A stretch of 64,000 nucleotides of DNA from an uncultured Candidatus Saccharibacteria bacterium (lineage in GTDB: Bacteria > Patescibacteriota > Minisyncoccia > UBA6257 > 2-01-FULL-56-20): the NCBI GenBank assembly GCA_964360585.1, contig CAYHXC010000002.1:5641-69640 (forward strand), read 5' to 3'. Below the pieces are notes generated by a model. The model had not been told where the DNA came from, did not search any database, and worked only from the letters and a program-made list of their open reading frames with translations. A program made the position numbers and the translations under genes. Positions 33,808 through 57,760 of the stretch are shown here, piece by piece. Position 1 is the stretch's first letter. Each line of letters starts with the position of its first letter.

Positions 33808-34028
33808 TATGACAGCTCCTCTGTTAGCTACCTAGTGTATACCACCACTGGCTACTTCCTTCAATAGTCCGCCAAGAAAAATATGGCGGGCAAGAAAGCT
33901 TCGGCGGGACATAGTGAAGGACGTTAGAATCTTCTTGTCGTGGTTTGCAACCGCTTCTTTTCCGATCCAATTTAGTGATGACATAACGTTTCAGTTTTTT
34001 TACTATCTTGTGCAAAAAGTGAAACGGG

Positions 34029-34343
34029 TCATTTTTTATTCTCATCCAAAAAGCGCTGGATAATTTCAGCAACCTTATCTTTTCTGCCGGTTATCAAAAC
34101 TGGTAGCGCGGCGAGCACGGATGCATTTTTTGTAGGCAATAGCTGAACATCTCCTTCGGCATATTCTGCAAGGTTCGTGAGAAATTCATCAAACCACGAT
34201 GGCGCAACCGCCAAAACATCATCGAAACCTATTTGTATCGACTCCTGCTTATTAAGCGTCGGACGAATCCCATTAAACGCTTCGAGGCCTGCCGGTCGCG
34301 AAACCAAGACATTTCCGAATTTTTTGAGGTGAATTGTTTGCAT
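34029..34343 (-). CDS. STAS-like small protein (SpoIIAA/DUF4325-like anti-sigma-antagonist fold candidate)
   Basis: 104-aa ORF encoded directly downstream of the GHKL ATPase gene. Composition and length fit a STAS-like partner. The call is by inference. Confidence 0.45.
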   Translation of the reverse strand: MQTIHLKKFGNVLVSRPAGLEAFNGIRPTLNKQESIQIGFDDVLAVAPSWFDEFLTNLAEYAEGDVQLLPTKNASVLAALPVLITGRKDKVAEIIQRFLDENKK

Positions 34344-34353
34344 GTTTTTTAAT

Positions 34354-35110
34354 TTAGAATTTTATTACCGCGTACGCGCCGCGTATATTCTCGGACGCTG
34401 CCGTAATTGTTATTGAACCTTGTTCTTTCGGACTTTTTCCGCCGAAGGCGGATCCGCCTCTGGCGGACACTTTCGCGACTCCGGAACGGAACAGGAAACC
34501 AATCGGGTTTAACTCTACGATGCGGCGCACCACTTTTAATCCGTTCCCTCGTTTCTCCGGTTCTCTTCCGGATACAATTTCCGTAAATGCGACGCGGAGC
34601 GCTTCAACATCCGTTTCAATATTGGGACGTACGCGAGATAGTGTTTTTCGAACACCCTGTCCCCGGTCAGCCAGCACAATGAAGCGTTTACCGATATCAT
34701 ATGCAAAAAATATTCCCGGTACGTCAGGCCAGTTGCCAATGTTGTGCATGAAAGAATTATCTCCAATCTCGCCCGCAACGGTCGTAAGAAGAGAAGCTGC
34801 TTCCTCGCTCACCGATTTTGTTTGAGAAAGAAGCAATCCCATTTTTTCCAAACGACTCGAAAACCGTGCCTGCTGTTCGCAATAATATTCGGCTGGAATT
34901 TCCGGCGGTTGCGCGCTTGAAGCCCACGCCCATCCCAGTTTTTCAAGATCAAGCGCAAGACGTTGAATATCTTGTAGGAGATAATAACGCTGGCCTCCCT
35001 CACTTCGCTGCGACAAAAGTTTCCCCGTTTTTTCCCAATTACGGAGGGTCTGAACGCTCATGCCCAGTATTTCGGCTGCCTTGCCTATGCGAATTTTTTC
35101 ATCCTTCATG
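34354..35110 (-). CDS. MerR-type HTH fused to GHKL (histidine-kinase-like) ATPase domain
   Basis: N-terminal region KAAEILGMSVQTLRNWEKTGKL is a MerR/excisionase-type HTH. The C-terminal region has an N-box (GEIGDNSFMHNIGN), G1 (LADRGQG) and G2 (GNGLKVV). The real start is ATG at 35110; the ORF track's TTG extension covers the operator. Confidence 0.65.
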
Positions 35111-35129
35111 TTTATAAGGTTAGCGCATG

Positions 35130-35162
35130 AACCTATAAAAGTCAAGTTATTTTTATAGGTTT
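35130..35162. promoter_or_regulatory. palindromic operator aacctataaaa-N10-ttttataggtt upstream of the MerR-GHKL gene
   Basis: 11-bp perfect inverted repeat lying 20-50 nt upstream of the start codon. Confidence 0.5.
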
Positions 35163-35455
35163 AGAGCTAAAATCTATAAGTAAAACCTTCTATGCCCGCA
35201 AAGCTTTCCTTCTTCCCAAAACAATTGAAGTAAAACGCGAAATACTGCGCGGGTTAGCTAAGAACTCGCTCTAAAAAGACCAAGAGTTCAATGTTACTGC
35301 GTACGAATGGTTCGTCCCGATTGGAAACGGCTATCCGGCGCTCGAAGCAAAATACTTGAGCTTAAAACCGGCGAAAGTGCCGATGAATCCAATACAAAAT
35401 TAACCTTTGATGGCCATTCGTACGGAATGGCGCGGGGTCGTAGAGGACATTAGAA

Positions 35456-37136: not shown

Positions 37137-37218
37137 GCAAACTTGGATTCGATACCTAGCTATTGTACGGAAAAGAGTGGAAAAAGCAACGCAACATATT
37201 CTCCCCTCCTATCACTAT

Positions 37219-37258
37219 TATATAAAACGATCGTTTTATATAATAGTGATAGTGTAAG
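37219..37258. repeat. 40-bp perfect palindrome (atcactattatataaaacgatcgttttatataatagtgat) at the 3' end of the 37260..37856 gene
   Basis: Centred on cgatcg. It shares the core ctattatataaaacgatcgttttatataatag with the copy at 37860..37895. Confidence 0.7.
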
Positions 37259-37259
37259 A

Positions 37260-37856
37260 CTAGATAAGGTGATGGAGAGCACCGGCACTTCCTACTTCAA
37301 AAATCTCGACGTGCTTGCCTAAACCTAGACAATATAAATCCTTAATCAATTCTTTAGGGATTTTTGTTTTGCCGAGCCAAACACTTTTTTGAATTTGTCT
37401 TAACCCCAGTTCGCGAAGAACAAGACGAAGCCAATCTCGCTTACGTCTGTCTTTTTCAGGTATATCGAAAGCAACGATAACTGGTTTACCAATCTTTTCT
37501 GCGTGGTAGTTGGCCAGTGGCAATTCTTCCTTTCGGAATCGCCGATAATCTTCTAAGCGCCTGCGTCCAGTTTTTGTTATAGTAAAGAACTTACCCTTTT
37601 CTTTTTCGTTTTCCGAAATCAAACCTGCCTGCTTCAAATAATAGAGCAGATTGTAGTATCGTTGTTTTTCGCTCGTAGTCTTTCGTAACTTCCTCCCTCG
37701 AGTCCTTCTCTCCTTTTGCACGATATTGGTCATCGCATTTAGTTTTTTGAACGAAGCACCATATCCTGCTCGTAAAAAGGCTTCGAAAAGATCAGTGCTT
37801 GTTACAGCCGCATCCTTCACCGCTTCAAGAATTCTAAAAGTGATATCTCCTCTCAT
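37260..37856 (-). CDS. winged-HTH regulator with Cas2/VapD-like C-terminal domain (PaaX-like architecture)
   Basis: The C-terminal segment VIVAFDIPEKDRRKRDWLRLVLRELGLRQIQKSVWLG resembles the Cas2 core. The N-terminal ~90 aa look like a wHTH. Confidence 0.5.
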   Translation of the reverse strand: MRGDITFRILEAVKDAAVTSTDLFEAFLRAGYGASFKKLNAMTNIVQKERRTRGRKLRKTTSEKQRYYNLLYYLKQAGLISENEKEKGKFFTITKTGRRRLEDYRRFRKEELPLANYHAEKIGKPVIVAFDIPEKDRRKRDWLRLVLRELGLRQIQKSVWLGKTKIPKELIKDLYCLGLGKHVEIFEVGSAGALHHLI

Positions 37857-37859
37857 GTT

Positions 37860-37895
37860 GCTATTATATCAAACGATCGTTTTATATAATAGCAA
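37860..37895. repeat. second copy of the ~36-bp palindrome, at the start codon/promoter side of the 37260..37856 gene
   Basis: Sequence gctattatatcaaacgatcgttttatataatagc. Confidence 0.7.
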
Positions 37896-37898
37896 CGA

Positions 37899-39935
<2,037 letters not shown>

Positions 39936-40074
39936 TCAACTTAAGATTGCCACGCTCCGCTCGCAATGACAAGCGAAAATCAGCCAGATCCAAGTTGTAA
40001 ATTCTTTCTCATTACTTTTCTTCGTGCGTAATTCGAGGCGGCAACGAGCATTCATTTTACTTAGATAAGAAATT

Positions 40075-40166
40075 GAGCAGATTCAAGGCTTGGCCGAGTA
40101 CCGCAACCGAGATGTATTCAACATACACCGAGGGCGGAACGCAGGCCGTAACGCAGAATCTGCCCA
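40075..40166. ncRNA. copy A of a repeated structured element (conserved acaaggcttg..gagtaccg..cgagggcggaacgca..gtaacgcag framework with four covarying helices)
   Basis: Lies immediately 3' of the 40183..40695 gene. Pairings are P1 gcagattc/gaatctgc, P2 ggcc/ggcc, P3 atgtat/atacac and P4 ccgc/gcgg. Confidence 0.6.
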
Positions 40167-45463: not shown

Positions 45464-45510
45464 GAATCTCGACCTTTTTGTATATTTCCCATTCTACAAC
45501 TTTGAATTAT

Positions 45511-45609
45511 GAATGGCCATCGGCAAGGCTTGATTGAGTACCGTAACCGAGGTGTATTTAAAATACATCGAGGGCGGAACGCAAATCGTAACGCTGCAGA
45601 TGGCTATTC
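45511..45609. ncRNA. copy B of the repeated structured element
   Basis: Lies immediately 3' of pilC. Pairings are P1 ggccatc/gatggc, P2 gatt/aatc and P3 gtattt/aaatac. Confidence 0.6.
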
Positions 45610-50699: not shown

Positions 50700-50809
50700 G
50701 TTTAAAAACGATGAGCTACAAGGCTTGGTCGAGTACCGCAAGGGAGCTGTATTAAGCATACAGCGACTGCGGCACGGAGACCGTAACGCAGTAGATCACG
50801 TTTTTAAAC
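50700..50809. ncRNA. copy C of the repeated structured element
   Basis: Lies immediately 3' of the 50815..51132 gene. Pairings are P2 ggtc/gacc and P3 ctgtat/atacag. Confidence 0.6.
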
Positions 50810-57345: not shown

Positions 57346-57650
57346 CCTTAAAACGCGAAATGCTTCGTTACGGCCTGCGCTCCGCCCTCACATAAATGTG
57401 AACTTCCGCCGAAGGCGGATCCTCCTCCGGAGGACGCTTACGGTGCTCGGCCAAGCCTCGCATTTCATCATTTTATGGCTAAAGTAAAATACACTATCCC
57501 TTCAACATAAAACACCCCGTCTATAGGGGTGTTTTGATTGTTGAATTAAATTCAGATCCAGAATTGTTGATTTTTGGATTTTCTACAAGGCGGCAGTGAG
57601 TACCGAAGCGAGACAGGGAGTTATCAACGGAACTTGATTCTCAAATTTTA

Positions 57651-57760
57651 TTGATAACGCGATGAAATACAAGGCTTGACCGAGTACCGCCCCGAGCAAT
57701 ATTGAAACATATTGTAAGGGCGGAACGCAGGTCGTAACGCAGTAGTTCGCGCGTTATCAA
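57651..57760. ncRNA. copy D of the repeated structured element
   Basis: Lies immediately 3' of hup. Pairings are P1 ttgataacgcg/cgcgttatcaa (11 bp), P2 gacc/ggtc, P3 caatat/atattg and P4 ccgcc/ggcgg. Confidence 0.6.

Follow-up and report, generated by a model that had tools for sequence, protein, structure and literature searches.

A Two-Gene Cassette in a Saccharibacteria Contig

We analyzed a two-gene cassette in a 64,000-nt stretch of DNA (the window) from an uncultured Candidatus Saccharibacteria bacterium (contig CAYHXC010000002.1, positions 5,641 to 69,640). The first gene, here called geneA, encodes a helix-turn-helix (HTH) fused to a kinase-like domain of the GHKL type, and the second, geneB, encodes a small STAS-like protein; an array of palindromic half-sites lies over the putative promoter of the pair. 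The cassette probably works like the CapK/CapS pair of bacterial regulators but belongs to neither family. A first-pass annotation, made from the sequence alone, had described a two-gene module at this position. Both of its open reading frames (ORFs) were present on the minus strand, but its start for geneA, 35110, was off by one: the frame from 35110 runs into stop codons, and the ATG lies at 35109-35107. geneB starts 10 nt past the geneA stop. The coding features are as follows.

35109..34354, minus strand: geneA, HTH fused to a GHKL kinase-like domain, 251 amino acids (aa) (ORF, homologues, AlphaFold2 [AF2] model)
34954..35091, minus strand: MerR/BldC-type HTH, geneA residues 7-52 (Pfam, PDB profile match)
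34813..34953, minus strand: N-terminal extension of the kinase module, geneA residues 53-99, GWAW..SAQPPE..YYC..RF..RLEKM (alignments, secondary structure of the model)
34357..34812, minus strand: GHKL (Bergerat-fold) domain, geneA residues 100-251 (Foldseek, invariant motifs, hhalign to CapK)
34741-34773, minus strand: N-box GEIGDNSFMHN (geneA sequence)
34654-34671, minus strand: G1 motif ADRGQG, D148xG150xG152 (geneA sequence)
34534-34551, minus strand: G2 motif RGNGLK, R187-K192 (geneA sequence)
34343..34029, minus strand: geneB, predicted STAS-like (DUF4325) protein with a short C-terminal helix, 104 aa (profile matches)
34197-34199, minus strand: codon of Ser49 of geneB, candidate phospho-acceptor (hhalign to CapS, conservation)

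geneA Joins a BldC-Like HTH to a GHKL Domain

The N-terminus of geneA was confirmed as a MerR-type HTH. Residues 7-43 matched Pfam MerR (PF00376) with an E value of 1e-12 and 48.1 bits, and the HTH also matched MerR_1 (PF13411; E 6e-11, 42.6 bits); both scores were above the curated cut-offs (28.2 and 21.6 bits, respectively). A sequence search returned 2574 homologues of geneA, and the closest PDB sequence match of the family profile was BldC (6amk, E 8.7e-6). In the AF2 model, the HTH was not followed by a long antiparallel coiled-coil of the MerR dimerization type. Considering the missing coiled-coil, the 17-nt promoter spacer and the half-sites that flank or overlap the -35 and -10 hexamers (see below), geneA is BldC-like and not a canonical MerR protein. 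BldC itself is a stand-alone protein of about 70 aa, while the HTH of geneA is fused to an enzyme domain.

The C-terminal two-thirds of geneA had no Pfam match of its own and matched nothing in the PDB sequence and profile searches. A shallow alignment of 25 homologues gave an unusable AF2 model, with a predicted local distance difference test score (pLDDT) of 54. With a deep alignment of 146 diverse sequences, including stand-alone and winged-helix-turn-helix (wHTH)-fused relatives, pLDDT rose to 92.7 and the predicted template modeling score to 0.87. When this model was compared with the PDB by Foldseek, ranks 1-29 and nearly all of the 50 listed matches were GHKL ATPases or kinases (E 3e-4 to 5e-3, probabilities mostly >0.9), and the remaining matches were MerR-family regulators aligned on the HTH. 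The top GHKL matches were the ATPase domain of African swine fever virus topoisomerase II, TRAP1/Hsp90, PDK4, the 24-kDa fragment of GyrB and ZraS. Residues E114, N118, H122, N123, D148, G150, R182, E185, R187, G188, N189, L191 and K192, that is, the N-box, G1 and G2/lid positions, were invariant in the 146-sequence alignment, and G152 and G190 were at least 90% conserved. Thus, the Bergerat-fold ATPase with N-box, G1 and G2 that had been proposed from the sequence agrees with the predicted structure, in which the C-terminal domain adopts a GHKL/Bergerat fold; its ATP-binding residues are intact. The only non-HTH Pfam families repeatedly matched by relatives of geneA were HATPase_c_2 and HATPase_c (4 of 25 homologues and 6 of 9 stand-alone proteins), always below threshold (E 5e-4 to 0.07).

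Between the two domains lie about 47 conserved residues (53-99) that are mainly helical in the model and too short for a STAS domain. We assigned them to the kinase module because stand-alone relatives without the HTH retain this stretch, aligning to geneA from about residue 60.

geneB Is a Probable STAS-Like Protein with a Conserved Serine

The small ORF had been taken for a STAS-like (DUF4325-like) protein, and its family supports this. DUF4325 (PF14213) was matched by 34 of 35 aligned members (best E 1.7e-8), many homologues hold precomputed PF14213 matches, and some databases already call them DUF4325. By these family-level matches, geneB probably belongs to the DUF4325/STAS-like family. 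A Pfam scan of its 104 aa found no HTH. The motif P48-S49-W50-x-D52-E53-F54-L55 was nearly invariant in the family alignment, and Ser49, the candidate phospho-acceptor, was kept in 117 of 120 cluster representatives (~98%) and in 76 of 77 genomic loci. One further feature follows the gene.

33987..34026, minus strand: hairpin 3 nt past the geneB stop, 13-nt arms, 92% complementary (inverted-repeat detection)

Transcription of the pair may end at this hairpin. A canonical terminator is unsupported, since the hairpin lacks a T-tail and the terminator scan passed over it. Just downstream, the intergenic segment 33877-33905 is a 29-nt repeat that is 93% identical to 1936-1964, near a tRNA (2196-2266).

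The Two Genes Are Strictly Paired in Patescibacteria

In the GTDB species-representative genomes, 410 loci encode a relative of geneA, and the taxon names on these loci are nearly all Patescibacteria or clearly mislabelled names of metagenome-assembled genomes. We fetched 80 geneA loci from 80 genomes, of which 77 were testable for pairing, the contig continuing past geneA. A geneB homologue followed geneA on the same strand in all 77, and the gap between the two genes was 3-44 nt in every testable locus except L016 (143 nt). Among 1.84 billion cluster representatives, only 291 clusters were related to geneA; their members are either fused to an HTH (about 245 aa) or stand-alone (about 195 aa). 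A further search added relatives fused to HTH_24/MarR-type winged helices. The stand-alone relatives (Bdellovibrionales-labelled and Patescibacteria) and the wHTH-fused ones likewise have a DUF4325 gene next. Therefore, the kinase-like domain and the DUF4325 protein form the conserved core, and the DNA-binding domain is exchangeable. Searches of plasmids, GenBank phages and IMG/VR returned no relatives of the cassette, which leaves a mobile-element origin unsupported.

Half-Sites over the Putative Promoter Covary with the Recognition Helix

The sequence upstream of geneA holds an array of half-sites and a putative promoter.

35111..35180, minus strand: operator array of four 11-nt half-sites in alternating orientation (sequence, inverted-repeat detection, conservation)
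35180-35170, minus strand: half-site S1, CTTATAGATTT, then 7 nt
35162-35152, minus strand: half-site S2, AAACCTATAAA, then 12 nt holding TTGACT
35139-35129, minus strand: half-site S3, TTTATAGGTTC, then 7 nt
35121-35111, minus strand: half-site S4, AACCTTATAAA, then C, then ATG
35140..35145, minus strand: putative -35 hexamer TTGACT, inside the S2-S3 spacer (sequence; TTGAC conserved in the spacer across loci)
35117..35122, minus strand: putative -10 hexamer TAACCT, 17 nt after the -35 and ending 7 nt before the ATG

The first-pass annotation had pointed to an 11-bp perfect inverted repeat in the promoter. The repeat is real, with 11-nt arms (35130-35140 and 35151-35161) that are 100% complementary and 10 nt apart, but it is only S2/S3, the middle pair of the four half-sites. 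For perfect inverted repeats of at least 11 nt with a gap of at most 20 nt, the 64-kb window held 5 loci, against a mean of 0.5 in first-order Markov simulations. The four-half-site layout recurred in most clade-1 loci, whose proteins are 55-75% identical to geneA. We counted the motif TATAGGTTT with at most one mismatch in the 120 nt upstream of geneA and elsewhere. Its density was 20.8/kb upstream and 0.26/kb in the background (80-fold). Of 53 related loci, 50 had it, with copies near -30 (+), -55 (-) and -70 (+) and in some cases further ones near -95 (-) and -115 (+). In clade 2 (45-51% identity to geneA), the upstream regions instead carried GCATAGTTT as a direct repeat, in two to four copies placed at about -35, -55 and -75. 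The inverted motif of clade 1 and the direct motif of clade 2 were each largely absent from the other clade, and at conserved geneA positions the recognition helices of the clades differed by Q20D, N24R and E26D. This covariation of motif and recognition helix is the best available evidence that the HTH reads the sites. Conservation, fixed position at the promoter and covariation together support the view that the palindrome behaves as an operator. BldC binds DNA head-to-tail. The direct repeats of clade 2, about 20 nt apart, are reminiscent of this mode, whereas the clade-1 operators are inverted.

The distance from the start of the -35 hexamer to the ATG was 34-38 nt in 57 of 70 loci. Neither a leader nor a Shine-Dalgarno sequence fits into this distance, and the geneA mRNA is therefore probably leaderless or nearly so. 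A generic promoter consensus scan did not call the predicted promoter of geneA because TAACCT matches the consensus at only 3 of 6 positions. A protein sitting on S2-S4 would occlude this promoter, which suggests autorepression.

An exact form of the wide palindrome was sought in 241 million metagenome records and found at 56 loci, 16 of them immediately upstream of geneA. Nearly all of the other loci were rejected as unrelated terminator-like hairpins, with self-complementary spacers, T-tails and AT-rich genomes. One locus had a five-half-site clade-1 array near rpsG, followed by a terminator-like hairpin (L135 1150-1320, Ga0172379_10026150). Its 5.9-kb contig carries no geneA or geneB, and Rfam finds no RNA gene there; the array may be a remnant or else a candidate target to which the regulator is not linked. 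The palindromes AAACCTATAA/TTATAGGTTT make up tandem units, each about 115 nt long, on an unrelated contig (L132 4000-4358).

Rfam found nothing within or around the cassette. Between the operator and the neighboring TehB-like methyltransferase gene lies a 266-nt non-coding stretch (35190-35455) with a long-range stem (35299-35312 with 35413-35426); its plus strand folds somewhat better than shuffled sequences (z -2.5) and has no Rfam match.

Comparison with Known Kinase/STAS Pairs

GHKL-kinase/STAS pairs were shown outside sigma-factor control only in 2026, as DNA-damage-activated regulators of immune operons and a toxin. CapK, with the order HTH-STAS-GHKL, is switched on by single-stranded DNA (ssDNA) and phosphorylates CapS (STAS-wHTH) on Ser54 (Chambers et al., EMBO J 2026, PMC13373217). 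Phospho-CapS leaves the "narrow" and "wide" palindromes, and the downstream immune operon is de-repressed; capKS lay upstream of immune operons in 348 of 443 cases (PMC13373217). In the related VapKSC system, the antitoxin to a VapC nuclease is VapS, a 116-aa protein made up of STAS and a short C-terminal helix, with Ser48. Phosphorylation of the equivalent Ser has biochemical evidence for CapK/CapS and genetic support for VapK/VapS (PMC13373217).

We took the CapK and CapS sequences from the source data of that paper for hhalign. The geneA profile aligned with the CapK kinase domain over 111 columns at 28% identity (E 2.8e-4), and the geneB profile aligned with the STAS domain of CapS (E 5.2e-5), placing Ser49 opposite the phosphorylated Ser54. 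The top PDB match of the geneB profile was VapS (9z7o; E 0.24, not significant alone), with S49 adjacent to VapS S48. Against a SpoIIAB sequence, geneA gave an E value of 0.072, with the N-box (ExxxNxxxH) and G1 in register.

The likeness to CapK/CapS covers several levels. In both systems the kinase gene precedes the gene of the STAS protein, the kinase has an N-terminal HTH and an anti-sigma-like GHKL domain, a conserved Ser of the STAS protein lies where helix alpha2 begins, and autoregulation goes, or in the cassette would go, through palindromic half-sites at two spacings. The fusion of a partner-switching-type kinase to a DNA-binding domain had been called unusual, and it is less so than thought, because CapK is also a kinase with an N-terminal HTH. 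However, CapK has 368 aa and an internal STAS domain, while geneA has 251 aa and none (N-box Asn at N218 and N118, respectively). CapS is a repressor with a wHTH (HTH_24, residues 119-159), while geneB has no DNA-binding domain, so that in the cassette the kinase holds the sole one. In most cases an immune operon lies downstream of capKS, whereas the cassette has no conserved neighbor. Moreover, the capKS work used Enterobacter and Vibrio and reported the pair from diverse bacteria, while the cassette is concentrated in Patescibacteria, which PMC13373217 does not mention. With VapS, geneB shares the layout of a STAS domain with a short helix at the C-terminus, but no VapC/PIN gene accompanies the cassette, and VapK has a STAS domain and no HTH. 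With SpoIIAB/SpoIIAA and RsbW/RsbV, the cassette shares the combination of a GHKL Ser kinase and a single-domain STAS substrate; its locus has no sigma factor or PP2C, its DNA-binding domain is fused to the kinase, and the similarity is marginal. Thus, this kind of system has been known since 2026 (CapK/CapS), and the cassette is a minimal, stripped-down and widespread relative of it rather than a new class.

Genomic Neighborhood

To one side of the cassette, the window holds genes for a TehB-like methyltransferase, an APH-type kinase, tRNA-Asp, a PaaX/Cas2-like protein and LigA, and to the other side an unknown 147-aa ORF, an MFS protein and an ABC exporter. The 147-aa ORF, which is downstream of the cassette, had no Pfam or PADLOC match. 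Across the 80 loci, 1111 flanking ORFs were clustered, and no neighbor family was found in more than 5 of the loci. The recurrent families, each at or under this number, were TrmB-like regulators, an ABC ATPase, a PIF1-like helicase, large serine recombinases, AspRS, Fic and PNPase. Precomputed annotations of neighbors include GAPDH, SHMT, RsgA, PPDK and LigA, and the flanks were often housekeeping genes. No sigma factor or PP2C occurred in the recurrent clusters or among the flanking genes of the window, and no VapC/PIN toxin recurred as a third gene after geneB in the 80 loci.

The cassette had also been suggested as a defence-island regulator. With no neighbor family above 5 of 80 loci and flanks that were often housekeeping, we rejected a defence-island context. 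PADLOC gave no match for geneB or for the kinase domain of geneA, and near the cassette only generic domain matches. A MADS defence system was rejected as well, since its apparent components, the HTH (matching mad1), the TehB-like methyltransferase (mad2) and the ABC exporter (mad3 and mad8), were matched through generic domains.

Genes for PEP-utilising/PPDK-like enzymes lie a few genes from the cassette in unrelated loci (L091 1009-5078, L081 1-2579, L086 1199-1534 and L001 4652-7057), including one stand-alone-kinase locus labelled Bdellovibrionales; this may be coincidence. By the tRNA-Asp gene of the window, two related long perfect palindromes with 22-nt arms (CTATCACTATTATATAAAACGA/TCGTTTTATATAATAGTGATAG), at 37209-37252 and 37857-37896, flank the PaaX/Cas2-like gene (37260-37856). 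This pair resembles another operator or terminator pair.

Proposed Mechanism and Alternatives

We consider it rather probable that the cassette is a self-contained, autoregulated kinase-substrate signaling unit homologous to CapK/CapS and VapK/VapS, in which geneA represses the operon and phosphorylates geneB on Ser49. The proposal builds on the computed domain identities, the intact ATP-binding residues, the strict pairing, the Ser aligned to the CapS phospho-site and the covarying operator. According to it, geneA would be a DNA-binding protein and a kinase in one. Its HTH would bind the four-half-site array, which in its own operon spans the region from the -35 through the spacer and -10 to the leaderless start, and would keep expression low, and its GHKL domain would bind ATP and phosphorylate Ser49 at the N-terminus of helix alpha2 of geneB. 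The phosphorylation state of geneB would then set whether it stays bound to the kinase domain, and the state of this complex would bear either on cooperative DNA binding by geneA or on the availability of geneB for an unlinked target. Candidate input signals are ssDNA, as for CapK, or the ATP level, as for RsbW/SpoIIAB. Repression, phosphotransfer, input signal and physiological output are the parts of this scheme that we infer.

Several observations weigh against the proposal. The window has no second copy of the operator, and within 8 kb of the cassette in 76 related loci there was no excess of motif copies; nor was a phosphatase or output gene found linked to the cassette. The hhalign probabilities to the single CapK and CapS sequences were modest (41% and 67%). 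geneA had no match to Pfam HATPase_c or HATPase_c_2 above the curated threshold, and geneB itself matched DUF4325 with an E value of 0.0065 and 16.6 bits, under the 23-bit cut-off. CapK is also weak in Pfam (E 0.042 for HATPase_c), so the weak Pfam signal of geneA is typical for this branch. Ser49 was Ala or Gly in 3 of the 120 cluster representatives. Finally, the ssDNA signal may not apply, because half of the CapK ssDNA groove is formed by an internal STAS domain, and geneA has none. The predicted ssDNA contacts of CapK, K237/K239, align beside an invariant K141/R142 hairpin of geneA, which is only a hint as to the input signal.

Three other explanations were weighed. The cassette might be a VapKSC-type toxin-antitoxin or abortive-infection module, in which geneB would act as an antitoxin-like inhibitor of a toxin encoded elsewhere or by an unrecognized small neighbor, and geneA, responding to phage or DNA damage, would phosphorylate geneB and thereby release it. 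VapS, the top PDB match of the geneB profile, has a like layout (PMC13373217), a survey of 2017 found PIN.4 VapC toxins coupled to DUF4325 genes (PMC5499597), and a Francisella prophage carries a DUF4325 gene in its accessory region (PMC7924643). The cassette is also autoregulated on our reading, its contexts vary, and serine recombinases or resolvases are sometimes adjacent. Nevertheless, we regard this explanation as unlikely: neither PIN nor another toxin family follows geneB, no neighbor family exceeds 5 of 80 loci, the next gene lies on the opposite strand in many loci, and the downstream 147-aa ORF of the window, geneB and the kinase domain all lack PADLOC matches, the ORF also lacking a Pfam match. 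The absence of the cassette from plasmids, GenBank phages and IMG/VR points the same way, and a conserved cellular function would better match the 60-85% identity seen between Patescibacteria lineages. Classical partner switching is very unlikely. The GHKL domain of geneA would here sequester a sigma factor like RsbW or SpoIIAB, with geneB as the anti-anti-sigma factor and the HTH serving autoregulation only. The weak Pfam matches favor HATPase_c_2, the family covering RsbW/SpoIIAB, the ExxxNxxxH and G1 motifs are in register with SpoIIAB, and the STAS-like partner has a Ser at the position equivalent to that of SpoIIAA. However, no sigma factor or PP2C gene was linked in the 80 loci, and the kinase domain resembles CapK more closely than SpoIIAB (E 2.8e-4 and 0.072, respectively). 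In addition, the swap of the N-terminal domain between MerR-type and wHTH within the family points to DNA as the functional partner.

A MerR-type one-component regulator is quite unlikely too, with the GHKL domain as a sensor of ATP/ADP or a ligand without phosphotransfer, and geneB as a non-phosphorylated accessory protein or co-repressor. C-terminal effector domains are usual in MerR-family proteins, invariant ATP-binding residues would suit a sensor as well, and the replacement of Ser49 in 3 of 120 representatives also fits it. Yet the model lacks the long MerR coiled-coil, the promoter has a 17-nt spacer instead of one of 19-20 nt, and the sites, instead of lying between the -35 and -10, cover both. 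Ser49 is moreover about 98% conserved, and CapK and VapK act by phosphorylating the equivalent Ser (PMC13373217).

The kinase-substrate unit that we favor may be taken further, to a lineage-wide minimal stress switch of Patescibacteria. The kinase itself would be the repressor on DNA. Its conserved W/Y/C-rich extension and the K141/R142 hairpin would serve as the sensor, either of the ATP level or of a nucleic-acid or damage signal like that of CapK, and phosphorylation of the diffusible STAS protein would be the means of controlling unlinked targets. This extension is doubtful at present. If it were true, it would explain the N-terminal HTH of CapK and provide a general damage or energy response for regulator-poor organisms.

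The cassette extends the theme of the kinase/STAS pairs in three respects: its architecture is far simpler, it occurs in Patescibacteria, hosts that the CapK/CapS paper of 2026 does not mention, and it stands alone, with no linked defence genes. Since the kinase holds the sole DNA-binding domain and the operator is conserved and covaries, the cassette offers a tractable test of the role of the HTH, a point left open for CapK. It also supplies a defined promoter/operator pair for organisms with almost no characterized regulation.

A 30-nt Palindromic Element within geneA

The first-pass annotation had seen a double hairpin in the 3' coding end of geneA, and we located it precisely.

34438..34467: 30-nt double-hairpin palindromic element TCCGCCAGAGGCGGATCCGCCTTCGGCGGA (sense strand), in frame in the 3' part of geneA (inverted-repeat detection, alignments)

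The element adds SARGGSAFGG at about residues 217-226, in a surface loop of low pLDDT. It was absent from all geneA homologues except the 98%-identical P0001, and the DNA alignment of relatives showed a clean 30-nt gap at this point with conserved flanks. It folds strongly (z -4.5). Other Patescibacteria loci also carry it (L001 6246-6273 and L076 4040-4067). The L001 copy lies in frame in a PEP-synthase-like gene, adds SAKGGSASGG and corresponds to a gap in a 57%-identical homologue. The element behaves like a tiny insertion element able to land in frame in coding DNA, and it is reminiscent of the Rickettsia palindromic elements. This recurrent in-frame insertion is a separate small curiosity on genome dynamics in Patescibacteria.

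A second copy in the window (57404-57442) has compensatory stem changes and forms the center of an inverted copy (57360-57490) of a dispersed repeat of about 87 nt. This repeat, which has no Rfam match, consists of conserved flanks around a variable central hairpin. Its other copies lie at 40070-40156, 45510-45596, 50705-50791 and 57656-57742, with 70-79% identity between copies.

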